From NCBI GenBank assembly GCA_964520295.1, contig CAZFMQ010000001.1, positions 7,048-71,047 of the forward strand: 64,000 nt of DNA, given 5' to 3'. The notes below the pieces were generated by a model. The model worked only from the letters and a program-made list of their open reading frames with translations, was not told the origin of the DNA and ran no database searches. The translations under genes and the position numbers were made by a program. Below are positions 22,263 through 54,545 of this stretch, piece after piece. Positions within the stretch are counted from its first letter, which is position 1; every line of letters starts with the position of its first letter. This DNA is from an uncultured Candidatus Saccharibacteria bacterium. Its GTDB lineage: Bacteria; Patescibacteriota; Minisyncoccia; Phycocordibacterales; EsbW-18.

Positions 22263-22284
22263 CAGATGCGCTATACTGTAGAGT

Positions 22285-25044
22285 ATGGAACGATTTTCAG
22301 TGACAGCGGAGACACAATTTTCTTCTGCTGAACAAGAAGCAGCGTTTTTGCGTGAGCGCCTCAAGCGCTTGGAAGAGGGTATTGATAGTGGCGCAGACAC
22401 ATTACGCCACGAGCGCCCCGAAGAACAGTTGACGCGTGCATACGCTTCTGTACAACCAGAGAAGGTACTGGCGAAAGGGCATCAGATGTTGAAGCCAGAA
22501 ATTGATGCCGTCGTGCTTGATTTGGCTCCCGAAGAGCACGATACCGTTATGAGTGAATTACTTACGCTTGTGCGTGAAAAGGGTATTCGCAATGCACTGT
22601 CAGTTGTTGAAAAATTACACGATGCGCATATAGAAGACGATTTTCATCGGTTTTTAGCAGAATATCTCAAGACGGGATACCCCGTTTCTGGTATCAAGGA
22701 GGGGGATGTGCTCTGGAAGGCATTGCATATGACACTATTGGAGGTAACGTTGCCGTTTTCCGCACAGGAAGCACGCGAGCACCAGCGCCCACTGAAAGAA
22801 TTGCTCTCATCTATGGAGCAATTTTATGCAGGCGCACTGTCTACAACAGCAGAAAAAAATGCAAAGAAAAATTATTTCACGATTGAGTTAGCAGTAGAAT
22901 CACATCAAGAGCACATCGCACTCTTTCTCTCGGTGCCAGTTGAGAAGGTGCCACTCTTTGAGCGTCAGTTACTTTCTATTTTCCCGCAGGCACGTATTGA
23001 GGTTGCAAAAAATGATTACAACGTCTTTGTGCCCGAAGGGCAGGTGGCGGGTTCTACGGTGTCGTACAGTCGTCCATCCGCGTATTCGCTTAAAACACAC
23101 GAATCCTTTGACTACGACCCGCTCAATATCTTGCTCTCGTCATTTGCAAAGTTGCTCAAAACAGGGGAGGGAGCAGCATTTCAAGTACTGATTCGCCCTG
23201 CGCAAACCGATTACACAGGACGATTTAGAAAGTCGTTGGAAAAACTATCAAAGGGTATTTCAGTGAAAGAGGCGTTTGCGCAAGAATCACTCATGTCTTC
23301 TATTGGTAAGGAGCTCAACGGGTTGTTCTTCTCATCGGGGAAAAAAGAGGACACAGAAAAAGAAAAGGAGCGCGTGATAGATGATATCGCCATAGAGCAA
23401 GTTAAGCAGAAGGTGGCGCATCCAATTGTGGAGACAAACATACGTCTCGTGGCATCAGCAACCACTATGACACGGGCCGAAGCAATACTTTCAGACATGG
23501 AAGCGAGCCTCAATCAGTTTGAAGACCCGCGCGGGAATGCACTGGTGTGCACGCGCATCAAAAAGAATGCATTCAAAGTATTCATTAAAAACTTCTCTTT
23601 CCGTCTTTTTTCTGAGAGCAATGTGTTGCCGATGAATTTGCGCGAAGTTGCATCAATCATTCACCTGCCGACCGCAGGAAGCGATGGCTCGCGAGAATTG
23701 AAACGTTCAAAGTCAGGCGGCGCACCAGCGCCTATGGATTTGCCAACAGAAGGAATCCTTCTCGGTCATAACACATACGGCAATAAGCGCACACCAATAC
23801 ACATGGCAGATGTTGATCGTGTGCGCCACCTGTACGTCATTGGTCAGACTGGTACAGGTAAAACAACCATTTTGAAAAATATGATTGTACAAGATATCAA
23901 AAATGGGGAAGGGGTTTGTATGATTGATCCGCACGGCACTGACATTCAAGACATTCTTGCGCAGATTCCGAAAGAACGTTGGGATGATGTTATTTACTTT
24001 GATCCTGCACACACAGAGCGTCCGATGGGGTTGAATATGTTGGAGTACGATACGCGATACCCCGAGCAAAAGACATTTGTGGTCAACGAGCTCTTTTCTA
24101 TTTTCCAAAAATTATATGAGGCAGATACCATGGGGCCAATGTTTGAGCAGTACTTCCGTAACGCCACGCTCTTGGTTATTGAAGATCCCAACAGTGGTAA
24201 TACACTCGCAGATGTGTCGCGTGTCTTAAGTGATCCTGCATTTCGTGAATTGAAGCTTGCGCGCTGTAAAAACCCTATTGTGGTGCAGTTTTGGCGCGAT
24301 GTTGCCGAAAAAGCAGGTGGCGAATCATCGTTGGTCAACATGGTGCCGTACATCACCAGCAAGTTTGACGTCTTTTTGGCGAATGATTTTATGCGTCCGA
24401 TTATTACTCAGCGCACATCGGCGTTTAATTTCCGCCAGATTATGGATGAGCGCAAAATCTTACTCGTCAATCTCTCCAAGGGGCGTTTGGGTGATATCAA
24501 TGCCAACCTCATCGGCCTTATTATTGTCGGCAAGATTCTCATGGCGGCACTGTCACGCGTGGACGTACTTGGGCGTGGGGAAGTACATCCGTTCTATCTC
24601 TACATTGATGAGTTCCAAAACGTAACGACTGATTCTATCTCAACCATTCTTTCAGAGGCGCGTAAGTACAAACTAGGATTGATTGTGGCGCATCAGTTTA
24701 TTAAGCAATTACCAGATAAAATTCGTGATGCGATATTCGGTAACGTCGGTTCTTTGTGTGCGTTCCGTGTTGGTTCTGAGGACGCAGAGTTTTTGGAAAA
24801 ACAATTCACACCTGTATTTTCAGCAACTGATTTGATGAACATAGATAACTTCAATGCAGTTATTAAAATGCTAGCGAATAATAAGCCCGTGCGTCCGTTC
24901 AACTTGCAAATTGAAAAACCAGCAGAAGGCAACATTGATGTAACCGACCGCCTCAAAGAACTTTCCTATGTTCGGTATGGTCGCCCACGCGCTGAAATTG
25001 AGGCGCAGGTAAGTACAACCCATACGGGTTTTGGCAATTCTTGA
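22285..25044 (+). CDS. FtsK/HerA-superfamily P-loop ATPase with a TraG/TraD/VirD4-type C-terminal domain (type IV coupling-protein-like). It has no N-terminal TM anchor.
   Basis: Walker A HLYVIGQTGTGKTT; Walker B FYLYIDEFQN; KLGLIVAHQF…GNVGSLCAFRVGSEDAEFL matches the TraG-D_C pattern. The N-terminal ~480 aa are unique. Confidence 0.6.
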   Translation: MERFSVTAETQFSSAEQEAAFLRERLKRLEEGIDSGADTLRHERPEEQLTRAYASVQPEKVLAKGHQMLKPEIDAVVLDLAPEEHDTVMSELLTLVREKGIRNALSVVEKLHDAHIEDDFHRFLAEYLKTGYPVSGIKEGDVLWKALHMTLLEVTLPFSAQEAREHQRPLKELLSSMEQFYAGALSTTAEKNAKKNYFTIELAVESHQEHIALFLSVPVEKVPLFERQLLSIFPQARIEVAKNDYNVFVPEGQVAGSTVSYSRPSAYSLKTHESFDYDPLNILLSSFAKLLKTGEGAAFQVLIRPAQTDYTGRFRKSLEKLSKGISVKEAFAQESLMSSIGKELNGLFFSSGKKEDTEKEKERVIDDIAIEQVKQKVAHPIVETNIRLVASATTMTRAEAILSDMEASLNQFEDPRGNALVCTRIKKNAFKVFIKNFSFRLFSESNVLPMNLREVASIIHLPTAGSDGSRELKRSKSGGAPAPMDLPTEGILLGHNTYGNKRTPIHMADVDRVRHLYVIGQTGTGKTTILKNMIVQDIKNGEGVCMIDPHGTDIQDILAQIPKERWDDVIYFDPAHTERPMGLNMLEYDTRYPEQKTFVVNELFSIFQKLYEADTMGPMFEQYFRNATLLVIEDPNSGNTLADVSRVLSDPAFRELKLARCKNPIVVQFWRDVAEKAGGESSLVNMVPYITSKFDVFLANDFMRPIITQRTSAFNFRQIMDERKILLVNLSKGRLGDINANLIGLIIVGKILMAALSRVDVLGRGEVHPFYLYIDEFQNVTTDSISTILSEARKYKLGLIVAHQFIKQLPDKIRDAIFGNVGSLCAFRVGSEDAEFLEKQFTPVFSATDLMNIDNFNAVIKMLANNKPVRPFNLQIEKPAEGNIDVTDRLKELSYVRYGRPRAEIEAQVSTTHTGFGNS

Positions 25045-41523: not shown

Positions 41524-43209
41524 GTGAATACAAGCAAGCAAGTTCTCATAGAGGCGGTACAGGCAGTGTGCGTAGAGCTCGGCTATCCCGAGGTGTCGTT
41601 TGTGATTGAGCGACCTGCCGATATGCAACATGGCGATTGGGCGTGCAACGTGGCACTGCTCCTTGCAAAGCATGTTGGTAAAAAGCCACGAGACATTGCC
41701 GAGACAATTGCAGGGGCATTGCGTGCTCGTTCGCTTCCACACATCGCGTCTATTGAAATCGCGGGCGCAGGTTTCATCAATGTGCGTTGCACACCTGCAT
41801 ATTTCAAAGAAGCACTCGCACGCACGCTCGCCAATACCACAGACATGACGAACCCTGCATTCGCGGGAAAAACAGTGATGGTGGAATACACACAACCAAA
41901 TCCATTCAAACCATTTCACATCGGACACTTGATGAGCAATACCATCGGCGAGACGATTGCGCGTGCGTATGCTGATGCGGGTGCAACAGTTATACGTGCA
42001 AACTATCAAGGTGATGTTGGTTTGCACGTTGCAAAAGCACTGTGGGGCATGATGCAAAAAAATGTAGATCCATCAGATATTGCAGGTATCGGTACGGCGT
42101 ACGCATATGGGCATGAGCAGTATGAGACCAATGAAACTGCGAAAGCAGAAATCATTGCACTGAACAAAAAAGTGTACGCGCGCGACGAAAGCATTATGGA
42201 TACGTACACCGCAGGGCGCACCGAGACGCTACAGGCATTTGAAAAAATTTACGCACTGCTTGGCACCACCTTTGACGAATACTTTTTTGAAAGCGAGGTG
42301 TGGGAGCAGGGTATGACACTCGTGCACGAGGGAGTGGAGAAGGGCATTTTTGAAAAGAGTGATGGCGCCATTGTGTTTCCGGGGGAGAAATATGGATTGC
42401 ACACACGTGTCTTCATTACACGCGAGGGTATTCCAACGTATGAAGCAAAAGAATTAGGGTTGTGTTTGGAAAAAACACAACGTCGCACCTTTGATGTTTC
42501 AGTGACCATCACCGCTGTGGAGCAAGAGCAGTACTTCAATGTGGTGTTCAAAGCATTTGAAGTGTTGCGTCCAGAGTTTGTAGGGAAGTTTCTACACGCG
42601 CACCACGGCATGATGGTGTTGCCATCAGGGAAAATGGGTTCGCGCAAAGGCAATGTCATCACCGGTGAATCACTTATTGATGACATGATTGCGCGTGCAA
42701 AAGAAAAAGTATCGGAGCGCGGCGTGTCTGATGCCGAGCAGATTGCACAGGATGTCGCTGTCGGTGCCATTAAGTACATGGTGCTCAAACAAGGTTTGGG
42801 TAAAAACATCACGTTTGATATTGAGAAGTCACTTTCATTTGAAGGAGACTCAGGACCATATCTGCAGTACACGTACACACGCGCCAATGCGGTATTGGAA
42901 AAAGCGCGTGACAACGGTATTGTACCTGCGCTCAATGAACAAACAGAAACGACTGATGTAGTGCGTCTCTGCGAGCGTTTTGCCGAAGTAGTGCGTGGTG
43001 CGCTTGAAAAACAGTACGCACCGAATGATCTCGTGCACTACCTCATTGCAGTGGCGTCGGCATTCAATAGTTGGTACGCACAAGAAAAAATCGTAGACAC
43101 CGACAATATGGATGTCTCTGCACACCGCACGGCGGTTACACAGGCGGTGGCATCCATCCTCTCGCACGGCCTGTCTCTGCTTGGCATCCCAACACCATCA
43201 AGAATGTAA
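41524..43209 (+). CDS. argS: Arginine--tRNA ligase
   Basis: HIGH-class I (PFHIGHLMSN); DALR anticodon-binding C-terminus. Confidence 0.85.
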   Translation: MNTSKQVLIEAVQAVCVELGYPEVSFVIERPADMQHGDWACNVALLLAKHVGKKPRDIAETIAGALRARSLPHIASIEIAGAGFINVRCTPAYFKEALARTLANTTDMTNPAFAGKTVMVEYTQPNPFKPFHIGHLMSNTIGETIARAYADAGATVIRANYQGDVGLHVAKALWGMMQKNVDPSDIAGIGTAYAYGHEQYETNETAKAEIIALNKKVYARDESIMDTYTAGRTETLQAFEKIYALLGTTFDEYFFESEVWEQGMTLVHEGVEKGIFEKSDGAIVFPGEKYGLHTRVFITREGIPTYEAKELGLCLEKTQRRTFDVSVTITAVEQEQYFNVVFKAFEVLRPEFVGKFLHAHHGMMVLPSGKMGSRKGNVITGESLIDDMIARAKEKVSERGVSDAEQIAQDVAVGAIKYMVLKQGLGKNITFDIEKSLSFEGDSGPYLQYTYTRANAVLEKARDNGIVPALNEQTETTDVVRLCERFAEVVRGALEKQYAPNDLVHYLIAVASAFNSWYAQEKIVDTDNMDVSAHRTAVTQAVASILSHGLSLLGIPTPSRM

Positions 43210-43255
43210 TATCCACACAGAAAGCGCCCGCGTATGCTGTATACTGCTGATATCT

Positions 43256-43675
43256 ATGGAGATGGACGCAACACCACGCAGAATGACAGAGGCGCCTTCA
43301 CGACGCGGGCGCGGCATCAAAAAAGTATTCTTTTTCCTCGTATTATGCGCACTTCTTGTCGCAGGTATCTGGTACTGGCTTTCATTGCCCGCAACTGGTT
43401 CATCTGAAGCAACTGCACGTCAAACAGAAAGTGCAGTAGAGCGTGTGTCTAAGGTGATGGTGTTACCACAGGACGAACAACCTGCAATCGGCACAATTAT
43501 TGATCCGTATAAATTCCAAGGAGGGGTATTTTTTGACGTAGTACAAATGGGGGATCTTGTGCTCATGTATCCCGAGCGCGGTATGCTCATTGTGTACAGT
43601 GCCGCACATAAAAAAATTGTAGGTGTTGCACCATTTGTCATGAATACACCGCCAGGCATCTCGGTTACCGAGTAA
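43256..43675 (+). CDS. Hypothetical membrane-anchored protein
   Basis: TM VFFFLVLCALLVAGIWYWL; short extracytoplasmic domain; ends 3 nt before the next gene. Confidence 0.35.
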   Translation: MEMDATPRRMTEAPSRRGRGIKKVFFFLVLCALLVAGIWYWLSLPATGSSEATARQTESAVERVSKVMVLPQDEQPAIGTIIDPYKFQGGVFFDVVQMGDLVLMYPERGMLIVYSAAHKKIVGVAPFVMNTPPGISVTE

Positions 43676-43677
43676 TC

Positions 43678-44916
43678 TTGCTTCTCAACAGGGTATGTAG
43701 CGAGTTTGCATACGTATTTTACAATAGAGTTACTGTGATCCCGCTGTCGTTATATTATTTGAAGATAGCATCTCTATCTGTTGCCATTGTGCTCGTGGCG
43801 ATAGCAATTTCTCCATTCATCATTCACAGTCAGGAGGGAGCAGAATCAGCAGAAGATTTTGTAGAAGAAGTGTCAGAAGAAATTGTTGAGGATGAAGTAC
43901 AGGAGGTACCAGCAGAACCAGAATCAGAGCCAGTTCCGGAAGAGCCCGAAGAAGAGCACACAGAGGAAGCCACCGATACAGAAGAGGTGGTTATTACTGA
44001 TGTCGGCAACGAAGCAACTACGACAGATGGTACAGAAGTGCTACACATTCCTTTTCCACAGGAGGAAGCAACCACAACTGCTTCAAGTAGTACTGAAACA
44101 TCAGAGAGCGCAACAAGCACCGCCTCCTCCACCGCATCAGACGTTGCAACAAGCACCGCATCTTCCACCGAATCAGACGTTGCGACGAGCACCGCGTCTT
44201 CATCAGAAACATTTTCAGAAGATCCATTTGCAACGTCAGTGGAATTGACGCCATTGACGGAAGCAGAAATAGCAACACCTGAAATACAACAAGACCTTGC
44301 ACAACTTGAAATATTTACAACGACCACCGACGCACTGCCAACAGATGATGCCACCACCACTGCGTCTACCACAGGGGATGAGTATCTAGAGATTGTATTG
44401 GAAGAATTGCCGCTTGAAGAGGAGATAGTGGAAGAAGAATATGTTTTGGCGCCACCATCACCAGAACCTCCACCACTGTATGAATCGCCATGGCAACGAT
44501 ATCTCAATAAGGTATTTGCGCTTGATGATGAGGCACGGCATACATGCACGTTTGAAAGTGATGTAAATCTTACTGAAGGTGGCACACAAGACGTAACGCT
44601 ATTGTTATCTAATCGAAACGGCTCTATGGGTGAGCTAGAAGTAGGGAATACACCTAATGGTGTGAGTGTGTTATTCAATGGTGAAGATAGTTATGTACAA
44701 TTTTGGTCAGCGGGACCAGAGACGCGATTGAGTATAGAAGTAAAACGTACGCTGTGGGCACAAGAGGGAATGTTCAATGTCCCTGTATTTTATACGAAAG
44801 GTTCATCTACCACTGTATGTCAGCTTATTATTATCAATGGTGTGTATCCGCAATCAGAGAGCGCCACGCAAGAGGTTCTTATTACCGATAGTGTCTCTGA
44901 AACGAAAGGAGAGTAG
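43678..44916 (+). CDS. Secreted/anchored surface protein: N-terminal TM, long acidic S/T-rich low-complexity stalk, C-terminal ~130-aa beta-rich domain
   Basis: TM IASLSVAIVLVAIAISPFII; EE/PE-rich; ATSTASSTASDV-type repeats; folded C-terminal domain. Confidence 0.45.
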   Translation: MLLNRVCSEFAYVFYNRVTVIPLSLYYLKIASLSVAIVLVAIAISPFIIHSQEGAESAEDFVEEVSEEIVEDEVQEVPAEPESEPVPEEPEEEHTEEATDTEEVVITDVGNEATTTDGTEVLHIPFPQEEATTTASSSTETSESATSTASSTASDVATSTASSTESDVATSTASSSETFSEDPFATSVELTPLTEAEIATPEIQQDLAQLEIFTTTTDALPTDDATTTASTTGDEYLEIVLEELPLEEEIVEEEYVLAPPSPEPPPLYESPWQRYLNKVFALDDEARHTCTFESDVNLTEGGTQDVTLLLSNRNGSMGELEVGNTPNGVSVLFNGEDSYVQFWSAGPETRLSIEVKRTLWAQEGMFNVPVFYTKGSSTTVCQLIIINGVYPQSESATQEVLITDSVSETKGE

Positions 44917-44922
44917 TACGAT

Positions 44923-47900
44923 ATGCAGTATAAGCGCATCATACAAAATAGTATGTTTATTGTGTACAGTGCGGTACTGGTATTTTTTGCGCTACCTGCA
45001 ATGGCCGCAACGTTTACGATGCAGACGGGATATTACGTAGGTGATGGTACAGATAATCGCGTTATCTCAGGACTTGGCATAACACCGAATGTGGTGTTTG
45101 TGAAAGATGATACCAATAATGGAGACGACGGTATTATTATGCGCACCAGTGCAATGGCCGGTGATTCATCTGCTAAACTGGCCGAAGCAGAAGCCAATGC
45201 CGCCGATCTCGTACAAGCACTTGCGTCAGGACAATTCACCATCGGTGCTGAGGCAGACATCAATGCAGTAGATCAAATGTATTACTGGACTGCGTTCGGT
45301 GGCAGTGATTGTACATCCACGGGTACGTTGTGTGTGGGTTCATATTTGGGCAGTGGTGATCTTTCACGCAATGTGAACGTGGGGTTTGCGCCCGATTTGG
45401 TGATTGTCAAACGAGCGGGCGCAACAGCAGGTGTGTGGACTTCATCGGCAATGCCCGCCAATACTACCGCTTTTTTCCATGGTGCCGCATCAAGTGCCGG
45501 TATCATCACGGCATTGGGTGCTACTCATTTTACAGTCAGTGCAAACGCAGCTGTTAATACTTTGGACAGTACATATTACTTTGTTGCATTCAAACAGGTT
45601 AGTGGCGCTATGGATGTGGGCACGTATACAGGGAACGGTAACGACAACAGAAATATAACATCATCTGATGACGCAGGGCTGACTTTTCAGCCGGACTTTG
45701 TGTGGGTCAAATCTTCAGCTGCTACTATAGCAGTACTTTCACAAACTGAACATTATGGTGATCGTACATACACAGCAGGAGACATATCATCTTTGTCAAA
45801 CAGCATACAAGAGTTACGTTCTGCTGGCGGTTTTCAGGTAGGAAATGAAACAACATATAACTCAGTTAATACAACAGGGAATACCTACTATTACGCGGCA
45901 TTCAACGGTGCGGTTGCAAAAAATCCTGCAAGCGAAACCTATACCATGAAATCCGGCTCATATACAGGTACCGGTTCGGGATTTTCTATTGGAGGTATTC
46001 CCTTTACACCCGACTTGGTCATTATTAAACACAATAATCAAGCAACTGATCAATACGCTGTTTTTCGTACAAGTCAGATGGGGGGCGATAACACATTGCA
46101 GTTTGCTACAGCAGCTTCTTTTACGGGTGGCATTACCTCATTGAATGCTAGTGGTTTCTCCGTTGGGACGGATGCTCGTGTTAATACTTCTGGTGATACA
46201 TACTACTGGACTGCATTTGGCAATGCCACGCGTCCTGACAAATCCGGTGGTGCAAATAATTTTGCAGTTGGTGCGTATATAGGCACGGGTGTAGATGGTT
46301 CTTCCGTAACGCGTCTCCCCATCGGTCCTGATTTATTGGTGGTAAAGCGCAGTGATAGTACAAACAATGGTGTATGGAGAACCAGTTCAGTGGCGGGTGA
46401 TTCATCTTTGTTTTTTCACAATGCAGCATCTGCGGCAAACTATATTCAGGCACTGACAAGTGATGGTTTTGAGCGCGGAAATAATGGATCAGTCAATACT
46501 GGTAGCGGTCGTTACAGTTATTTTGCATTTGCAGAGGGTGATGATTTTGTGCAGAACTCGTATACAGGTAATGGCAGTACGCAAAATATTGCTGCATACA
46601 ATTGGCAACCAGATATGGTATGGACGAAGAAAGGGACGGGAGGTACTGCGCGTGGTGGGTTATTACGTACGTCTGTAGTGAGTGGTGATGCATCATGGCC
46701 ATTTCTCAATCAAGCAACCCTTTCTAATGGTTTTACTAACCTACTCTCTGACGGTTTTTCATTAGGTTCATCGGTGGATGCCAATGAAAGCGGGTACACC
46801 TACTATTACGCGGTATGGGATGGTAAGAAGTATGGTCAATCAGGATTTCGTTTTTTTGAAAATACAGATAGCACAAGCGTGGGTACACCTCTTGCAAATG
46901 CAAATACGTCTGCAACACTGGGTGCTGTCGGTGATACATTTCGTCTTCGTATGTTGATGCACCTGACGGGAGGTAATTTATTACAAGGTAATGGTGGGTT
47001 CATATTGCAATACGCACAACCAAGCCCTTTTGATACTACTTGTAGTGGTCTGATGACATGGAATGACGTAGATACAGACACGGCAATTGCATTTTATGAT
47101 AACCCTAGTGCCACGGATGGTGCCGCACTGACAGCAACGAGTACTGATCCAACAAATGGTCTCTACACCATCGTCAATCAGAATTATCTAGAATCTCAAG
47201 GAAGTGGTTTTACCAATGGTATTGCTACCATCGCAGATATCCAAGATGGTAAATGGGATTTTTCGCTCGTGGACTACAGTGCTTCCGCCAAAACCACATA
47301 TTGTTTTCGTATGCGTCGCGCCGACACAGTATTATTTGAAGATTACACGGTACCGGCGGTGCGTATCACCACAGGAGCAACAGGAAGCCATGTGCCAACT
47401 GTCTCTAATGTATCTATTGATGAAGGGGCTCCGTCCATTACCTTGACTGAAGGTACGACCAAAAATGTGCAATGTACCGCAACAGCTACCGATACTGATG
47501 GGTATAGTGATATTACTGCTGTGACGGCGCACTTACACCAATCGTCAATCGATGTGAGTGCGCCCGCCGATGATAATCATCACTACATTGTTTCGGGCGA
47601 TTCGCAATGTGTACCGTCAAGTGGGTCAGGCAATTCCGAGGAATACACATGTACATTTGCGGTACAGTATTTTGCCAATCCAACGGATGCAGGTTCACCG
47701 AACGTGTTGGATGAGTGGGTGTGTTCTGTGTTTGCGTATGACGGTACATCCACCAGTACGGTGGCGACAGATACCACAGAGATAGATTCATTGATTGCGC
47801 TATCTGTTGATCCAGAAAGTATTGATTATAGTGAGGGTGGCCCACTGCTTCCTGAAGATATCTATGTACTTGTAAATAAAATGGATGTAGTCAACACAGG

Positions 47901-48183
47901 TAATCGGGACATTGACCCGCAGATTTCAGGCACACTTATGACAGGTGATGTACATAGTGGCACAATCGCGGTAGGGGAGCAGAAGTATGAAAATTTTGCT
48001 TTCGACTATGCCACTGAGGGCATCACACTGACGACCACGCCCACAACGATGGATTTGGCACTTCCACAGCGCACGGGTGGGGTAGTGTCAGATATACTCC
48101 ATTGGGGTATTCAAATTCCTTTGGGGACAATACCCGACACATACACAGGTGTAAATACACTGACTGCAGTGCCGGCGATATAA
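44923..48183 (+). CDS. Giant secreted protein (1086 aa): signal peptide, six tandem ~105-aa repeats, CARDB-like Ig domain, C-terminal LPQRT…WGI module
   Basis: Signal peptide VLVFFALPAMAA. Repeats share Y.G.G…F.PD.V.VK…W(R)TS.M.GD.S…GF.VG…VN…YY(Y/W).AF. C-terminus reads …VNKMDVVNTGNRDIDPQISGT…DLALPQRTGGVVSDILHWGIQIPLG. Confidence 0.6.
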   Translation: MQYKRIIQNSMFIVYSAVLVFFALPAMAATFTMQTGYYVGDGTDNRVISGLGITPNVVFVKDDTNNGDDGIIMRTSAMAGDSSAKLAEAEANAADLVQALASGQFTIGAEADINAVDQMYYWTAFGGSDCTSTGTLCVGSYLGSGDLSRNVNVGFAPDLVIVKRAGATAGVWTSSAMPANTTAFFHGAASSAGIITALGATHFTVSANAAVNTLDSTYYFVAFKQVSGAMDVGTYTGNGNDNRNITSSDDAGLTFQPDFVWVKSSAATIAVLSQTEHYGDRTYTAGDISSLSNSIQELRSAGGFQVGNETTYNSVNTTGNTYYYAAFNGAVAKNPASETYTMKSGSYTGTGSGFSIGGIPFTPDLVIIKHNNQATDQYAVFRTSQMGGDNTLQFATAASFTGGITSLNASGFSVGTDARVNTSGDTYYWTAFGNATRPDKSGGANNFAVGAYIGTGVDGSSVTRLPIGPDLLVVKRSDSTNNGVWRTSSVAGDSSLFFHNAASAANYIQALTSDGFERGNNGSVNTGSGRYSYFAFAEGDDFVQNSYTGNGSTQNIAAYNWQPDMVWTKKGTGGTARGGLLRTSVVSGDASWPFLNQATLSNGFTNLLSDGFSLGSSVDANESGYTYYYAVWDGKKYGQSGFRFFENTDSTSVGTPLANANTSATLGAVGDTFRLRMLMHLTGGNLLQGNGGFILQYAQPSPFDTTCSGLMTWNDVDTDTAIAFYDNPSATDGAALTATSTDPTNGLYTIVNQNYLESQGSGFTNGIATIADIQDGKWDFSLVDYSASAKTTYCFRMRRADTVLFEDYTVPAVRITTGATGSHVPTVSNVSIDEGAPSITLTEGTTKNVQCTATATDTDGYSDITAVTAHLHQSSIDVSAPADDNHHYIVSGDSQCVPSSGSGNSEEYTCTFAVQYFANPTDAGSPNVLDEWVCSVFAYDGTSTSTVATDTTEIDSLIALSVDPESIDYSEGGPLLPEDIYVLVNKMDVVNTGNRDIDPQISGTLMTGDVHSGTIAVGEQKYENFAFDYATEGITLTTTPTTMDLALPQRTGGVVSDILHWGIQIPLGTIPDTYTGVNTLTAVPAI

Positions 48184-48331
48184 TAACGCTACATAGCACG
48201 AGCAGTATTGTTGCCCTCTCATTATCCACAGCAGTACAACACGAGAAAACGGCATTTGCTATACTTTGCGTATGTCCAGTCCATGCTGATAGCGCGCTGG
48301 CCGTACTCTTATTCTGTTTCATAATCACCCC

Positions 48332-49216
48332 ATGAAAAAGACAGGGCTCATACTCGCTTCTTTGTTGCTCTCTACAGCATTTATTGTGTTTGCGGATGAT
48401 GTATCCACACAAGTGACTGTAGGTAACGCAACGCCATCAGCAACCAACCCCACGTTCAATGGGGGAGGTGCCATTACGCTTACTGAAAACACCACAACGA
48501 CGGTGTACGCTACCACCACAGTCACTGATACAAACGGGTGCGAAACAATTGTAGGAGTAACCATGGATTTTTATCGATCAGGTGTTGGCACGACATCATG
48601 TGACACCATTGGTGAAGCAGATGAAAACTATTGTTACCCACGTGTATCTTGTTCGGTCGCGGGCGGTTCATGTACTGGCCCTTCTGACACCAGTGCCGAT
48701 TATGTATGTTCTGTAGATTTGGAATACTATGCCGACCCTACTGACAGTGGTACATATGCTGCAGAAATCTGGAACGCAACAGTATATGCGGGTGATGGTA
48801 TTGCAACGACAACAGGTAACACGGGTACTGCTGAAGTAAACACACTTTTGGCGCTTGATGTAACAAGTTCAATCAACTACGGTACGCTCTCACCAAACAC
48901 TGATACGGGTGCTGATAATGCAACAACCACAGTGACAAATACCGGTAACGGTGCAATAGACCCAGAAGTTTCAGGTACCGACATGACTTCTGTTGGTGAC
49001 ACTATTACGGTTGGCTATCAAGAGTACGCAACCACCTCATTCACATATGGTGCGGGTACAGATCTTACTGGATCGGGTGTGCGTGCAGAAATTGATTTGC
49101 CACAACGAACTACGAGTGTGGTACAGGCACTGCTCTTGTGGGGTATCGGCATTCCCGCAGGTCAACCATCGGGTACATACACAGGTACCAACACATTTAC
49201 TGCCATTGCCGACTAG
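48332..49216 (+). CDS. Secreted 294-aa paralog of the C-terminal third of the giant protein
   Basis: Signal peptide MKKTGLILASLLLSTAFIVFADD. Aligns with 44923-48183 residues ~790-1086, including TVTNTGNGAIDPEVSGT and IDLPQRTTSVVQALLLWGIGIPAG. Confidence 0.6.
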   Translation: MKKTGLILASLLLSTAFIVFADDVSTQVTVGNATPSATNPTFNGGGAITLTENTTTTVYATTTVTDTNGCETIVGVTMDFYRSGVGTTSCDTIGEADENYCYPRVSCSVAGGSCTGPSDTSADYVCSVDLEYYADPTDSGTYAAEIWNATVYAGDGIATTTGNTGTAEVNTLLALDVTSSINYGTLSPNTDTGADNATTTVTNTGNGAIDPEVSGTDMTSVGDTITVGYQEYATTSFTYGAGTDLTGSGVRAEIDLPQRTTSVVQALLLWGIGIPAGQPSGTYTGTNTFTAIAD

Positions 49217-49241
49217 CATTACCTAAATATTTGCGACTGTC

Positions 49242-50186
49242 ATGAGCACTACACTTGTTAAATACAGCACAAAAATACTTCTCATGTGTGTGCTTGTGTG
49301 CGCGCCATTATTGACGCGTGCGGGATTTGGCGTCTCTCCAGGTCTTATTGAAGAATTACACCTTGTGCCAGGTACCCACATGGAAAAGACATTGTATCTC
49401 GTGCAGGGTGATCCAAAGCTAGATTTGCCTGCAACTGTTGCAGTTGAATCAGCAGATATTGCAAACTGGCTGACATTTCCTGATGGTACCTCGTTTATCA
49501 TTCCTGCTGGTGTACAGCAATATCCGTTACGCGTTGCATTTGATGTGCCGGTAGATGCACCTGTAGGTGACTATACTGCGTACATTCGTGTTACGACGCT
49601 TCCAAAACAAGATCCTGAAAATCAAATCACCATTGCACTCGGTGGACGCATTGACGTGCACCTTGTTGTTGGTACCGATATTGTAGTGGATTGGGATGTG
49701 CCACATATTGACGTGCTTGATGTAAAAGAGGGGGATGATCCAGAGGTGGTGCTGACAATTGATAACCGTGGTAATACGCAGGCAGGACCAGAGCGTGTAT
49801 CGTTTGATCTGTATAACAAGTATGGTGATGTGCGTTTGGGGTATGCAGAGACAGCGCAGGTATCCCGCGTACCATCGTTTACACGCAAGGCGCTTAAAGT
49901 AACATTTCCAATTGATATTCGTTTAGCGCCAGGGGAGTACTGGGGTCATGTGCGTGTGTATGGACGCGATGGTGTACTTGTACGCGAACTGAAAACACCA
50001 TTTGATGTAACGGTAAAGACCTTTGAAGAGAAGTATGGCGACCTCATTGTTGTCGGCGGTGCACTTCTTATCCTCTTGCTATGCATTGCGCTGGTTCGTT
50101 CAATTATTAAACACCGCCGCGCGCACAAGCAGTTGATGCATCATCAGCAGAACAACGTGCCACCACCGCCAATGCGCGTTTCCTAA
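49242..50186 (+). CDS. Signal-peptide protein with two predicted beta-sandwich domains, a C-terminal TM anchor and a basic tail. Topology resembles CscA/DUF916.
   Basis: Signal peptide ending LLTRAGFGVSPG. C-terminal TM LIVVGGALLILLLCIALV then RSIIKHRRAHK. Confidence 0.5.
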   Translation: MSTTLVKYSTKILLMCVLVCAPLLTRAGFGVSPGLIEELHLVPGTHMEKTLYLVQGDPKLDLPATVAVESADIANWLTFPDGTSFIIPAGVQQYPLRVAFDVPVDAPVGDYTAYIRVTTLPKQDPENQITIALGGRIDVHLVVGTDIVVDWDVPHIDVLDVKEGDDPEVVLTIDNRGNTQAGPERVSFDLYNKYGDVRLGYAETAQVSRVPSFTRKALKVTFPIDIRLAPGEYWGHVRVYGRDGVLVRELKTPFDVTVKTFEEKYGDLIVVGGALLILLLCIALVRSIIKHRRAHKQLMHHQQNNVPPPPMRVS

Positions 50187-50188
50187 GT

Positions 50189-51112
50189 ATGTTGTGGCGA
50201 CGTCTCCTCCTGTCGCTTATATGTATCGGCAGCGCAGCGCTCTGTAGCGCTACGGCGTTTGCCGACGATACCACCGTGACGGTGGAAGTCGTGATGCGTC
50301 AATGTTCAGATGGGATAGACAACGACGGCGATGCACTTATTGATTATCCTAATGATCCAGATTGTGATTCGCCAAATGATGACAGTGAAGGTGATGGAGT
50401 ACCACCCACTTCTGATGACGATGATGGTGGCGGTCGTGCATCATCATCGTATCGTCGTGGCACGCTGATACAATCGGCTATTCTATTTCGTGGAATAGCG
50501 CAACCGAACACATGGGTATTTGCATTTGAAGGTGATGACATGATTGGTATGGTGCAGGCTACAGTAGACGGCACATTCACGATGGGGCCAATAGCATTTT
50601 CTCCTGCACAAACGATATTTACGTTGTACGCATTTGACCCCGTGACAGGCACAACCACCACACATGCATTTCCGCTCACCATTCCTCGCTACTCAGTGGT
50701 AACCATAAGTGGCATTGCGCTGGGTATCGCACCTTTGGCGACAACAACCACAGCGACACTCCCGCCAATTTTATTTTTAGATGTTGTTGCCACTGACACA
50801 GCACACACAGAGTATCCAATACAATCACCCACAGAGAGTGTGCGTCCTGTACTCCCCACAGTTGTGACGCCCGATGCCGTGTATAGAGCATCATTGTTCG
50901 TAACGTCCGTGCGCGCACTTCTACAGACGCTCTATGATGGGTTCTTTGCGTGCCCAACACCGTACGACGTACGCGTCTTTTTAGCATCAGTGCAATTTTT
51001 GCAACCGTTGACACCGTTTATCCCATGCACCGTGTTGTGGTTTTCTGACCCGTTCTCGGCGCGTGTATTTGATGCTATAGTCGGTGTGTATGACAGCATC
51101 AGAAGGCGTTGA
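50189..51112 (+). CDS. Secreted protein with a MopE-like Cys/Asp metal-binding motif
   Basis: Signal peptide; CSDGIDNDGDALIDYPNDPDCDSPNDD (the C.DG.DND.D..ID…D.DC motif). Confidence 0.5.
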   Translation: MLWRRLLLSLICIGSAALCSATAFADDTTVTVEVVMRQCSDGIDNDGDALIDYPNDPDCDSPNDDSEGDGVPPTSDDDDGGGRASSSYRRGTLIQSAILFRGIAQPNTWVFAFEGDDMIGMVQATVDGTFTMGPIAFSPAQTIFTLYAFDPVTGTTTTHAFPLTIPRYSVVTISGIALGIAPLATTTTATLPPILFLDVVATDTAHTEYPIQSPTESVRPVLPTVVTPDAVYRASLFVTSVRALLQTLYDGFFACPTPYDVRVFLASVQFLQPLTPFIPCTVLWFSDPFSARVFDAIVGVYDSIRRR

Positions 51113-54100
51113 AAAAAGTGAACATGCGCTACGAGAGGAAGAGATTCTAGCGCAATGGAAAGAGCGAAATATCTTTGCAAAGACGTTGAAACAACCTGCA
51201 CCGCAGGGCGAGTTTACCTTTTATGAAGGCCCGCCAACAGCAAACGGACGTCCGGGTATTCACCACCTGATTTCGCGTATCTTCAAAGACGTTATTCCGC
51301 GCTACAAAACAATGCGTGGTTTCCACGTGCGTCGTAAGGCGGGGTGGGACACGCACGGTTTGCCTGTGGAGATTGCAGTAGAAAAATCACTCGGCCTCAC
51401 CTCAAAGAAACAAATTGAAGAGTACGGTATTGCGAAGTTCAATGAGCAGTGTAAAGAGGACGTGTGGAAATACATCAATGAGTGGCAAGAGTTTACGGAG
51501 CGCATCGGCTACTGGGTTGATCTCAATGATGCCTACATCACGTACTATCCGTCATATATAGAATCAGTATGGAACATTGTTGCGCACGTAGAGAAGCGCG
51601 GACTGCTGTATAAGGACTACAAAGTAGTCCCGTGGTGTCCGCGTTGTGGTACCGCACTCTCATCACACGAGCTTGCACAGGGATATCAGGATGTAAAAGA
51701 TTTATCTGTGTATGCGAAGTTTCGCGTGGTCGGGGAGGAGAATACTTTTTTGCTTGCATGGACAACGACACCATGGACACTTCCTGGTAACGTCGCGCTT
51801 GCCGTTGGTGCAGATATCGCGTATGTGAAAATCGCACAAGGCGGAGAGTTTCTTTGGTTGGCGCAAGAGCGCCTGTCGGTTGTGGAAGGGGAATATGAAA
51901 TTGTTGCAGGGGCGCGTGGTGCAGAGCTGGTAGGCATGTCGTATGAGCCTCTGTATCCGTTCTTGGGTGCACAGATTGCAGGAGCAGAAAAAGAGAAAAT
52001 GGAGAACGCATACAAGGTGTATCCGGCAGATTTTGTAACTACGGCAGATGGTACGGGTATCGTACACACAGCGGTGATGTACGGACAAGATGACTTTGAG
52101 CTCGGCAACCGCGTTGGATTGCCGAAGCACCACCTCGTTGGGGAAGATGGGCGCTTCATGTCAGGCACCGGTCTATTTGAAGGACGATTTGTGCGTGATG
52201 AAGATGTCGCAGTGGATGTGATAAAAGATTTGGCGGGTCGCGGACTGCTGTTTGCGAAAGAAAAATACGAACACACCTACCCGCACTGTTGGCGCTGTAA
52301 AACACCGCTTATCTACTACGCGCGCAATTCATGGTACATCCGTATGTCAGCACTCCGCGATGACCTCGTGCGTGAGAACAAAAAAATTAATTGGGTGCCA
52401 AGTCACATTCGCGACGGGCGTTTCGGTGAATGGCTTCGTGAAGTAAAGGATTGGGCAATATCGCGCGACCGCTACTGGGGTACGCCATTGCCTGCGTGGG
52501 AGTGTCAGTGTGGACACCGAGAAGTTATCGGTTCTATCGCGCACCTCAAAAAACTCACGCGCTCACGGGGCAATACATTCACGTTCGTGCGCCACGGAGA
52601 AGCAGAAAATAATGTACAAAACATTTCAAGCTCTGATGCCGATGCACCATTTCATCTTACGGAACGTGGCCGTGCACGCATCGCGCATGTTGCAAAAACA
52701 CTGACACGCAAGAAAGTATCTGCAGTGTACGCATCGCCATTTGTACGCACACAGGAGACAGCGCAGATTATTGCCGATGCGCTCGGAAAGAAGCATGACG
52801 ATATTATCACCGACAAACGATTGGGTGATTATGATTTCGGTGATTTTAGTGGTGGATCATATCATGATTTTCTTGCGTATGAAGGTGAGCACTTCACCAC
52901 GTATCGCGATCGTGCGCCGAATGGGGAAAGTTATGCAGATGCGCGTGCACGTTTTGCAGAGTTTCTCTATGACATAGATAGCAAACACGAACACGAGCAC
53001 ATCGTTGTCGTTTCGCACGGTATTTCATTGGAAGTCATCCCAGCAATTTTGGAAGGTATGGATGATACGCACGCAAAGCGTTTTATAGACAACATCAGCA
53101 CAAATCCGGGTGATACATTGTCATTTTCATTTGTACCAGTGCCACACAACGATGCACACGAGATTGATTTGCATAAACCATATATTGATGCAGTTGATTT
53201 GGTGTGCCCTGCATGTAGCAAAACGATGGCACGCACACCTGAGGTGATGGATGTGTGGTTTGATTCGGGTGCCATGCCGTTTGCGCAAGATCACTATCCA
53301 TTTGAAGGTGGTACGTATTTTTGGAATGCACAAAAACTTGCGTATCCTGCGCAGTATATTTCAGAAGCGATTGATCAAACACGAGGATGGTTTTACACAC
53401 TGCACGCAGTCGGTGCATTGATGGGGAAGGGTCGCGCGTATGAAAACGTGATTTGCTTAGGACACATTTTAGACGGTCAGGGTAAAAAAATGAGTAAGAG
53501 TTTGGGCAACATCATCAACCCATGGGAGGTTATGGCGAAGTATGGTGTTGATGTGGTGCGTTTTTGGATGTTCTCCATCAACCAGCCGGGTGATACAAAA
53601 AGTTTTGATGAGAAGACGGTTGATGAGGTACAAAAAAAGGTATTCAACATCGTGCGTAATGTCATGGCGTTTTATGCACTCTACGATGATGGTGCACCAT
53701 TGCCGAATGCGCGCAACAGCAAACATATTCTTGATACATGGATTTTGGCGCGCACCGATGCATTGGTGACGACGGTAACGCGCGAATTGGATGCATACCA
53801 CGCATTTGAATCTACCCGCGCAATTAAAGAGTTTGTTACCGATGTATCTACGTGGTACGTGCGCCGTTCTCGTGATCGTTTTCGCTCAGGTGGGGAGGAT
53901 GCGTTATATGCTCGTGCAACAACCCAGTATGTGTTGCAGGTGTTGGCAAAACTTCTTGCGCCGTTCACACCGTTTTTTGCAGAAGAGATATACCAAGCAA
54001 CGGGAGGCACTGCCGAAAGCGTGCACTTAGAAGCGTGGCCGGTTGCAGGCACAGTGTCGGGTGCGGAGACAGTATTGAAAGAAATGGAAGAGGCGCGCGA

Positions 54101-54545
54101 TGTGGTATCAAAAGCACTTGAAGCGCGCATGGGTGCGGGTATCAAAGTGCGCCAACCGCTCGCAACACTGACACTCTCACCACTGCACAAAGCATTGGCA
54201 CACAATGCTGAGTTGCTCGCGGTGATTGCAGATGAAGTAAACGTCAAAGCGGTAGTGGTTGCATCAGAAGAGCAAGGATTGGATGTGTCGCTGGATACAA
54301 CAATAACGCCTGCACTGGAGCAAGAGGGTGCTGTGCGTGAAATAATTCGTGCTATTCAAGATTTCAGAAAGACATCAGGATTACAGGCAACCGATACACC
54401 TGCATTGCACATCACCACATCAGAAACACAGAGCGCATTGATTGCAGAACATAAAGAAACACTACAGAAAGCAACGAATGTATCCGACATTATGGTTGCA
54501 ACAGGGGATACAGGTACAGAGCCGTTTGTGTTTTCATTGCGCTAA
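51090..54545 (+). CDS. ileS: Isoleucine--tRNA ligase carrying an inserted histidine-phosphatase (PGAM-like) domain
   Basis: HIGH (PGIHHL) and KMSKS present. About 195 aa inserted between ECQCGHREVIGSIAHLKKL and HKPYIDAVDLVCPACS, with FVRHGEAENN (RHGxxxxN), SPFVRTQETA and VVVSHGIS. Confidence 0.85.
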   Translation: MTASEGVEKSEHALREEEILAQWKERNIFAKTLKQPAPQGEFTFYEGPPTANGRPGIHHLISRIFKDVIPRYKTMRGFHVRRKAGWDTHGLPVEIAVEKSLGLTSKKQIEEYGIAKFNEQCKEDVWKYINEWQEFTERIGYWVDLNDAYITYYPSYIESVWNIVAHVEKRGLLYKDYKVVPWCPRCGTALSSHELAQGYQDVKDLSVYAKFRVVGEENTFLLAWTTTPWTLPGNVALAVGADIAYVKIAQGGEFLWLAQERLSVVEGEYEIVAGARGAELVGMSYEPLYPFLGAQIAGAEKEKMENAYKVYPADFVTTADGTGIVHTAVMYGQDDFELGNRVGLPKHHLVGEDGRFMSGTGLFEGRFVRDEDVAVDVIKDLAGRGLLFAKEKYEHTYPHCWRCKTPLIYYARNSWYIRMSALRDDLVRENKKINWVPSHIRDGRFGEWLREVKDWAISRDRYWGTPLPAWECQCGHREVIGSIAHLKKLTRSRGNTFTFVRHGEAENNVQNISSSDADAPFHLTERGRARIAHVAKTLTRKKVSAVYASPFVRTQETAQIIADALGKKHDDIITDKRLGDYDFGDFSGGSYHDFLAYEGEHFTTYRDRAPNGESYADARARFAEFLYDIDSKHEHEHIVVVSHGISLEVIPAILEGMDDTHAKRFIDNISTNPGDTLSFSFVPVPHNDAHEIDLHKPYIDAVDLVCPACSKTMARTPEVMDVWFDSGAMPFAQDHYPFEGGTYFWNAQKLAYPAQYISEAIDQTRGWFYTLHAVGALMGKGRAYENVICLGHILDGQGKKMSKSLGNIINPWEVMAKYGVDVVRFWMFSINQPGDTKSFDEKTVDEVQKKVFNIVRNVMAFYALYDDGAPLPNARNSKHILDTWILARTDALVTTVTRELDAYHAFESTRAIKEFVTDVSTWYVRRSRDRFRSGGEDALYARATTQYVLQVLAKLLAPFTPFFAEEIYQATGGTAESVHLEAWPVAGTVSGAETVLKEMEEARDVVSKALEARMGAGIKVRQPLATLTLSPLHKALAHNAELLAVIADEVNVKAVVVASEEQGLDVSLDTTITPALEQEGAVREIIRAIQDFRKTSGLQATDTPALHITTSETQSALIAEHKETLQKATNVSDIMVATGDTGTEPFVFSLR

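Follow-up and report, generated by a model that had tools for sequence, protein, structure and literature searches.

A two-domain C-terminal module shared by a giant secreted protein and its small paralog in Patescibacteria, with a co-encoded membrane protein as its candidate anchor

The locus described here bears on how Patescibacteria, the bacteria of the candidate phyla radiation (CPR), display very large, fast-evolving surface proteins and attach to their hosts. It lies in a stretch of 64,000 nucleotides (nt) from an uncultured Candidatus Saccharibacteria bacterium (assembly GCA_964520295.1, contig CAZFMQ010000001.1, positions 7,048 to 71,047 of the forward strand), referred to as the window, whose own coordinates are used throughout. 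Two adjacent genes in it encode a giant secreted protein and a much smaller one that resemble each other at their C-termini, and an initial annotation, made from the sequence alone, took the common tail for a possible novel sorting or wall-anchoring signal. What do the two proteins share, and what might it do? The conserved unit proves to be a previously unnamed C-terminal module of two domains and ~270 amino acids (aa), found across Patescibacteria. The explanation that we favour, at roughly even confidence, is a non-covalent form of surface display resembling that of WxL proteins, mediated by a membrane anchor encoded immediately downstream. The two proteins are laid out as follows.

44923-48183 (+): giant secreted protein, 1086 aa, comprising an N-terminal signal peptide, a variable payload and the C-terminal module (from its open reading frame (ORF), Pfam and the hidden Markov model (HMM) of the module)
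45010-46842 (+): payload of the giant, at least five tandem repeats of ~105 aa, each closing YY(W/F/Y)xAF (DUF7483/DUF7361), with repeat anchors at aa 120, 218, 322, 427 and 531
47356-48180 (+): module copy in the giant, aa ~812-1086 (domain 1 ~812-955, domain 2 ~956-1086), from BLASTP and the family HMM
48332-49216 (+): small paralog, 294 aa, a signal peptide plus the module and nothing more (ORF, homologs, AlphaFold2 model)

The alignment of the last ~300 aa of the giant with the whole of the small protein, as originally reported, is borne out by BLASTP (giant aa 859-1083 against small aa 68-292, 39% identity, E=2e-26) and by the family HMM, which widens the match to giant aa ~812-1083 and small aa ~20-292 (E=4e-84 on the giant; HMM positions 30-301). 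Since the HMM extends the BLASTP match in this way, the C-terminus of the giant amounts to essentially the whole mature small protein, and the paralogy of the two modules is far beyond chance. The three motifs first pointed out do occur in both (ITLTE..T..V..T.T.TDT(D/N)G, V.NTGN..IDP..SGT and LPQRT...WGI.IP.G), and neither a hydrophobic segment nor a K/R tail follows LPQRT, again as annotated: the small protein stops at its last beta-strand and the giant three residues later. The labels "Ig-like" and "CARDB-like" attached to these motifs stand as resemblances of pattern only and not as family assignments, because no Pfam model, CARDB included, matches the module; CARDB (PF07705) gave zero matches in the two window proteins and in 32 family members. 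The hydrophobic N-terminus of the giant (FFALPAMAA, then TF), read by eye from the sequence, was taken as its signal peptide. Its payload matches Pfam DUF7483 at aa 342-632 (E=2e-27, 4 stretches), and this payload is not common to the large proteins of most other loci.

The AlphaFold2 model of the small protein, built from a 102-sequence alignment, has a predicted local distance difference test (pLDDT) value of 94.4 and a predicted template-modelling (TM) score of 0.82, and runs from a signal-peptide helix through an unstructured segment (aa 17-35) into two successive beta-sandwiches. Its parts, and the corresponding C-terminal piece of the giant, are these.

48332-48394 (+): signal peptide of the small protein, aa 1-21 (model helix 2-16; conservation), with a near-invariant junction A21/D22 as the putative cleavage site
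48395-48436 (+): conserved mature N-terminal segment, aa 22-35, D..ST.VTVGNA.P (top-residue frequency; DSSP)
48437-48841 (+): domain 1, aa 36-170, a 7-stranded beta-sandwich (strands 36-167) with conserved cysteines and a T.TVTD.NG motif (model, alignment)
48842-49213 (+): domain 2, aa 171-294, a beta-sandwich (strands 175-293) with the TGN motif T204-G205-N206 (model, alignment)
48989-49213 (+): separable C-terminal half of domain 2, aa 220-294, delimited by the split and insertion site discussed below, with the non-conserved LPQRT at 49097-49111
47944-48180 (+): the equivalent separable piece of domain 2 of the giant, aa ~1008-1086, holding LPQRT at 48061-48075, its boundary placed by the variants that are split or interrupted at HMM 226-229

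In this model the C-terminal block consists of a loop bearing LPQRT and the final strands 265-273 (WGI.I) and 287-293 (TFTAIA), so that the 34 residues following LPQRT are two beta-strands of folded domain 2. Because the block forms core strands of a folded domain, it is incompatible, on the model, with a cleavable membrane-embedded signal. Nor does conservation single it out. In alignments of 32 and 102 sequences the invariant positions of the module span E52 to L245, and near-invariant ones reach A291: domain 1 has invariant E52, T63, D66, W147 and D155 along with six cysteine residues, and domain 2 has invariant T204, G205, N206 and L245 and near-invariant W270, G271, P275 and G285. The mean top-residue frequency is highest, for the whole family, in the mature N-terminus (aa 21-35; 0.74), where A21 and D22 are kept in at least 90% of the 102 sequences, and stands at 0.65 for the first part of domain 2, 0.61 for the C-terminal 60 aa and 0.56 for domain 1. 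The resemblance of LPQRTG to the LPxTG motif dissolves among homologs, which have LPQGT, LAKPT, STKPT, TGKPT, IVKAT or VVKRD at this position; around it only T260 is kept in at least 90% of sequences. The proposal of a sorting signal finds no support on these grounds, and what emerges is largely the outcome that the annotation itself had held up as contrary to it, namely the last beta-strands of an Ig-like domain with no independent conservation. The conserved stretch at the start of the mature small protein might serve as an interaction strand or as a donor strand; its first ~8 residues are missing from the large proteins.

Structural comparison of the module model with the PDB by Foldseek returned only generic tandem beta-sandwiches (RbmA, integrin, transglutaminase, CsuE, CfaB) at TM-scores of 0.2-0.35, the best of them (0.34-0.35) being the tip and major pilins CsuE (6fjy_B) and CfaB (3f85). 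At the level of sequence, the family profile aligned the C-terminal block to the last two strands of the GH123 N-terminal beta-sandwich with the non-significant value of E=0.27, over the shared pattern "W..v.IP.G..aG.YTGT.T..A", and on the basis of this alignment the block appears to follow a common F-G strand pattern. The Pfam model Glyco_hydro_123_N_2 was found in 3/32 module members, its best value (E=3e-4) falling under the curated threshold. Among Ig-like domains of the GH123_N, NEW3, DUF4625 and ASH type, the "..NTGN.." motif of the B-C strand and the "IP.G...G.Y.G..T..." motif of the F-G strand recur, and the ASH-containing SPD-2 domain of CEP192 turns up in the Foldseek lists of both the module and its partner protein. 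All such matches are nevertheless sub-threshold, and none spans the two-domain module or explains the conserved cluster.

The family is large. A set of 5.8 billion proteins holds 296 homologs of the small protein at E<=1e-3. No Pfam domain is found in any of them; the majority of those listed are ~300 aa long and matched over nearly their full length, and source names, where given, lead to Patescibacteria/Paceibacteria. No Pfam, NCBIfam or PDB sequence match above threshold was obtained for the module or for the partner protein, exact look-up of the window proteins in public databases gave no names, and no published account of the cluster was found in the literature on DUF7483, WxL/WxLIP, PapD and CPR surface proteins. 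A profile of the C-terminal block alone found nothing further in the window, and among 1.84 billion cluster representatives it recovered 752 proteins at E<=1e-3, of which 166 reach E<=1e-10; the longest measures 5,806 aa. Among the best 150 of these 752, the block of 149 lies 0-20 aa from the C-terminus, and in 112/119 of those among the best 150 that have at least 215 aa upstream of it the full contiguous module is present. Matches of 66-130 aa were considered as stand-alone block proteins and rejected: most start inside the module, several at an internal Met of GTDM/TSGG, and they have no signal peptides, which marks them as truncated gene calls. The idea of a distinct C-terminal unit comparable to PEP-CTERM, PGF-CTERM and WxL survives in part, as a dedicated C-terminal module of secreted proteins whose closest functional analogue among those we found is WxL, and not as a short recognition signal.

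The company kept by the module is as regular as its position. A scan of species-representative genomes with a 13-sequence alignment yielded 24 related loci (25 including the window), in records named Paceibacterota, Jorgensenbacteria, Microgenomates, WS6/Dojkabacteria and WWE3 and in metagenome-assembled genomes labelled Saccharibacteria; neighbouring families were defined over +/-10 kb by iterative searches and by unbiased clustering of all adjacent ORFs. The module family occurs in 25/25 loci, with 52 ORFs or about two per locus, and in 46 ORFs the end of the complete module is separated from the stop codon by 0-15 aa (median 3). A first related locus had the gene order of the window. The usual order is a large protein (480-3,590 aa, module at its extreme C-terminus), a small module protein, the anchor and an acidic-repeat protein. 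The parts N-terminal of the module range from 200 to more than 3,300 aa and are mostly unrelated among loci, one of the other large proteins carrying a ConA-like lectin domain in its payload. In eight loci, mostly of WS6, Dojkabacteria and WWE3 (L008, L009, L010, L011, L014, L017, L018 and L019), the "small" module protein measures ~570 aa and has an extra N-terminal copy of domain 1; the anchor in the same set, where present, is longer (448-632 aa), and the order is sometimes small-anchor-large and not large-small-anchor.

Most pertinent to function is the protein encoded next to the small paralog.

49242-50186 (+): co-conserved partner, 314 aa, with a signal peptide, an AGFGVSP mature N-terminus, Ig-like domains at 30-143 and 151-257, a C-terminal transmembrane helix and a basic tail (AlphaFold2, alignment)

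Homologs of this partner are present in 21/25 loci, or 21/22 when only loci with enough flanking sequence are counted, and there they adjoin a large and a small module protein; 3 of the 4 loci that do not show it are contigs that end. Thirty-six homologs were collected, all without Pfam annotation, and their alignment displays a signal peptide, a near-invariant AGFGVSP, two domains, a transmembrane helix and a K/R tail. The AlphaFold2 model (pLDDT 93.2) places the C-terminal helix at 261-304. When it was compared by Foldseek with 350,542 PDB chains, rank 1 was the unrelated Vpr fibril, and ranks 2-4 were 9i25_C ("WxLIP from E. faecium locus A bound to long WxL") and 9i1y_A/B ("WxLIP"), with E of 1e-9 to 2e-9 and TM-scores of 0.28-0.35; we found no paper in the literature for 9i25/9i1y. 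These were followed by CEP192 SPD-2, chains of the ciliary central apparatus, and the PapD-like chaperones FimC, Caf1M, CfaA and CsuC (E 1e-8 to 1e-6, target-normalised TM-scores of 0.40-0.47), from which the partner differs in being anchored in the membrane.

A WxL cluster comprises a small WxL that is nothing but the domain, a large WxL that carries it at the C-terminus, behind adhesin-like domains, and a WxLIP of DUF916-DUF3324-transmembrane architecture; these proteins interact, and in AlphaFold2 models a beta-hairpin strand of DUF916 inserts into WxL beside its N-terminal strand (PMC9772566, PMC10599100). Nine annotated clusters that we retrieved from plasmids of Enterococcus, Listeria, Bacillus, Lactiplantibacillus, Lactococcus and Pediococcus bear out this layout. 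By analogy, the module would be a docking unit of two beta-sandwiches that tethers secreted proteins non-covalently to the cell surface by way of the 49242-50186 protein. The giant would carry a variable, probably adhesive, payload ahead of the module, the small protein being the module alone, and the partner, held in the membrane by its C-terminal helix, would bind the module with its two Ig-like domains. The logic would be that of the Gram-positive small WxL, large WxL and WxLIP, carried out by an unrelated docking domain. Conserved cysteines, acidic isoelectric points and signal peptides agree with an extracellular location. The likeness is architectural and, for the partner, apparently structural: the module is always C-terminal, and it occurs as a domain-only small protein and at the end of a large multidomain protein beside a membrane-anchored partner, which shares with WxLIP a signal peptide, two Ig-like beta-sandwiches and a C-terminal transmembrane helix. 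Even the C-termini are reminiscent of one another ("...VP.G....G.Y..TLTW.L..aP" in WxL, "...IP.G...G.YTGTNTFTAvaD" in the module).

The differences are equally clear. The module has ~270 aa and two beta-sandwiches, whereas small WxL is a single domain of ~180 aa; it has one near-invariant W270-G271-[IL] and no second WxL motif, its last strand reading F/L-T-A where WxL has T-W-x-L, and the D..R..GTxAG context of the first WxL motif is not seen in it. The partner lacks the DUF916/DUF3324 signatures (no match to either in any of the 36 homologs in Pfam, even at E<=10) and the NQIDKxxxYFDLK motif of WxLIP, and has AGFGVSP instead. Unlike WxL clusters, this one includes no small LPxTG protein, and its hosts are Patescibacteria and not Bacillota.

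Several observations weigh against the WxL-like explanation. That module and partner bind is something we infer, and the same data fit a pilus-like polymer. Sequence comparison gives no support for membership of the WxL or WxLIP families, hhalign scores being low beside the control of small WxL against the C-terminus of large WxL (98.6%, E=9e-16): 2.5% for the module against small WxL, 0.2% against the C-terminus of large WxL, and 2.3% for the partner ectodomain against WxLIP. The C-terminal block against small WxL gave 9.1%, over 27 terminal columns only. A value of 94.8% for the full-length partner against WxLIP was discarded as evidence of homology, since it was driven by the signal peptide and transmembrane helix and fell to the figure just given once these were trimmed. 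No Pfam WxL match (PF13731) was found among 32 module members at E<=1, and within the top 50 Foldseek matches of the module, all of them generic tandem beta-sandwiches, no WxL chain such as that of PDB 9i25 appears. The match of the partner to WxLIP is partly generic tandem-Ig likeness, given its low TM-scores (0.29-0.35) and the unrelated Vpr fibril at rank 1. Finally, locus L010, which has adequate flanking sequence, encodes two module proteins and no partner gene within 5.7 kb downstream.

Further insight into the module comes from the seven exceptions among the 119 proteins mentioned above, in which it is interrupted or partial. P0245, P0268 and P0202 carry entire domains of 230-390 aa at HMM position 226-229; the insert of P0245 (locus L037:8001-10034) consists of seven propeller-like "ISQIDSSHYLVAY..GWSTVLNVN" repeats, and those of P0202 and P0268 are LamG-like. 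In P0219 and P0278 it is the junction of domains 1 and 2 that holds an insertion, and P0274 and P0289, like P0297 and P0298 outside this set of seven, retain just the final ~78 aa, preceded by unrelated domains. At three independent loci (L036:3-1854, L038:4946-9110 and L039:4932-8696) domain 2 is split across adjacent genes. The first encodes a secreted protein of ~1,000 aa that stops exactly at HMM 226 (NTGNSxIDxYLxGTDLxKQ, then the stop codon); the second starts 13-30 nt later and codes for a protein that has a signal peptide of its own, an F5/8-type-C discoidin domain and the stretch HMM 229-303, and a complete small module protein and an anchor protein come after it. The products of the second genes are only 54-66% identical to one another, which argues that the split is kept by selection and is not a sequencing artefact. 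The split and insertion site corresponds to T219-G222 of the small protein, modelled as a hairpin turn between strands 218-220 and 223-225, and to aa ~1007 of the giant; the module accordingly takes nested payloads at the very site where other loci split it. Because it can be separated by insertions, or placed on a separate secreted protein, in these rare variants, the C-terminal stretch of ~78 aa is a separable structural unit. Domain 2 is apparently assembled from two polypeptides in the split loci, and this division between two secreted chains makes beta-strand or half-domain complementation plausible as part of the mechanism, perhaps of binding to the anchor. It does not rescue a processed sorting signal, and speaks for reconstitution of a domain over recognition of a signal.

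Complementation is also the essence of the alternative that survives best, although we consider it rather unlikely: a pilus or fibre with the small protein as its putative major subunit, the large one as tip adhesin, and the two-Ig partner as a PapD-like chaperone or platform in a cell without an outer membrane. In chaperone-usher and sortase pili the adhesin consists of a payload and a subunit domain and the major subunit of the domain alone, an architecture that the giant and its module-only neighbour reproduce. The partner model matches FimC, Caf1M, CfaA and CsuC, all chaperones; the best TM-scores of the module are to pilins; and aa 22-35 of the small protein, the most conserved segment and yet unstructured in the monomer model, is what a donor strand would look like. 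The split of domain 2 over two secreted chains points to assembly in trans, so that here, too, part of a beta-sandwich could be supplied from another polypeptide, as in the chaperone-usher systems (FimC, Caf1M, CsuC; FimH, CsuE). The split variants, however, exchange a multi-strand half-domain of ~78 aa and not a single donor strand, and the monomer model, of very high confidence, is a complete and self-contained fold in which no strand is evidently missing. Neither an usher-like nor a sortase-like gene is co-conserved, nor did the 25 loci reveal any further large conserved neighbour fit to be an usher, and the putative chaperone is anchored by a transmembrane helix. WxLIP is at least as good a structural match to the partner as the chaperones are, every Foldseek match being a low-scoring, generic Ig tandem. 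To our knowledge, WxLIP proteins do not build pili.

Direct attachment is a less probable alternative still, and one we doubt: the target to which the module binds would be peptidoglycan, an S-layer or some other polymer of the envelope, the role of the transmembrane protein being separate. WxL domains have indeed been proposed to bind peptidoglycan (PMC9772566), locus L010 has its two module proteins and no anchor gene in the downstream interval examined, and the weak, sub-threshold likeness to Glyco_hydro_123_N_2 and to the GH123 chain is to carbohydrate-associated Ig-like domains. The adjacency of the partner in all but one of the 22 loci with enough flank argues instead for a joint function, and searches of Pfam and NCBIfam recognised no carbohydrate- or peptidoglycan-binding domain in the module.

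The C-terminal signal envisaged at the outset, in which a dedicated enzyme (a sortase, an exosortase or an archaeosortase-like one) would recognise and process the last ~60 aa, as with LPxTG, PEP-CTERM and PGF-CTERM, is highly improbable: like those signals the block sits at the extreme C-terminus (in 149/150 of the best matches) of secreted proteins whose N-terminal domains are diverse, has four near-invariant residues (W270, G271, P275, G285) and in P0274, P0289, P0297 and P0298 persists alone behind unrelated domains, but it belongs to a folded domain that is present entire in 112/119 testable matches, is no more conserved than the rest of that domain's module, and has no conserved short motif, transmembrane helix, basic tail or nearby cognate enzyme. 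As regards the last point, no sortase TLxTC motif was found in window ORFs of at least 40 aa by a motif scan that did not extend to sortases elsewhere in the genomes, and loose [TS]LxTC matches in the 24 other loci fell only in short spurious ORFs. No enzyme was co-conserved among the neighbours within +/-10 kb in the 25 loci; in place of the sortase-, exosortase- or archaeosortase-like gene that the initial annotation proposed to look for, the co-occurring gene is that of the membrane-anchored two-Ig-domain protein.

Returning to display by a co-encoded anchor, the cluster can be viewed as a cassette of three to four genes (a variable giant, a small module-only protein, a membrane anchor and often an acidic-repeat protein) in organisms that the source records name Paceibacteria, Jorgensenbacteria, Microgenomates, Dojkabacteria/WS6 and WWE3. 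As neither module nor anchor has a Pfam or NCBIfam family, the cassette provides a marker by which candidate adhesins can be searched for, namely a copy of the module at the end of a protein. It would extend the WxL/WxLIP logic of display past Bacillota with an unrelated docking domain, whether by convergence or through a relationship too distant for sequence methods, and the split-gene variants constitute a natural test of assembly in trans. A bolder proposal, which we advance tentatively and think unlikely in full, is that of a phylum-wide, previously undescribed display system of Patescibacteria, in which hypervariable giant adhesins are mounted through the two-domain module on a WxLIP/PapD-like anchor, docking occurs by reconstitution of a beta-sandwich from different polypeptides, and the split variants are its visible trace. 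If this were true, the apparatus by which these episymbionts attach to their hosts would have a strong candidate in the cluster, which would also amount to a naturally occurring "protein glue" made of split domains.

The fourth gene of the cluster begins just after the anchor gene.

50189-51112 (+): fourth cluster gene, 307 aa, with a signal peptide, an acidic double-disulfide repeat (CSDGIDNDGD..DYPNDPDC) and a beta-rich domain (NCBIfam NF033662, E=3e-5, below its cutoff)

Homologs of it occur in 12/25 loci. The ortholog in locus L001 (L001:9860-12681) has a borderline dockerin type I match at its end; after it come two proteins that combine a signal peptide with a transmembrane segment and belong to a further family, not represented in the window, that likewise recurs in 12/25 loci. 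A cohesin-dockerin-like layer may be attached to the cluster. On the other side, separated from the giant by a gap of 6 nt, 43678-44916 (+) encodes an acidic protein of 412 aa (isoelectric point 4.05) with a low-complexity region rich in Thr, Ser and Glu and repeated "ATSTASSTxSDV" units, for which the other 24 loci have no homolog. A promoter and terminator scan of 43000-51500 gave nothing beyond shuffled expectation.

Elsewhere in the window, 25-2760 and 2762-5656 (+) encode two more large and probably surface-located proteins that lack the module, one of 911 aa with a Peptidase_S74 intramolecular-chaperone domain, as in tailspikes and endosialidases, the other of 964 aa with four Laminin_G_3 stretches. 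Downstream of the cluster, 51084-54545 (+) encodes an isoleucyl-tRNA synthetase of 1153 aa within whose catalytic domain a histidine-phosphatase domain is lodged (Pfam His_Phos_1, E=7e-35, aa 500-672, RHGE motif), an unusual insertion for an aminoacyl-tRNA synthetase. At 19650-25044 (+), a protein of 870 aa with no Pfam match precedes a TraG/VirD4-like coupling ATPase of 919 aa (DUF87, TraG-D_C, TrwB_AAD_bind), and the pair may be what is left of a type IV secretion or conjugation system, or a part of one.

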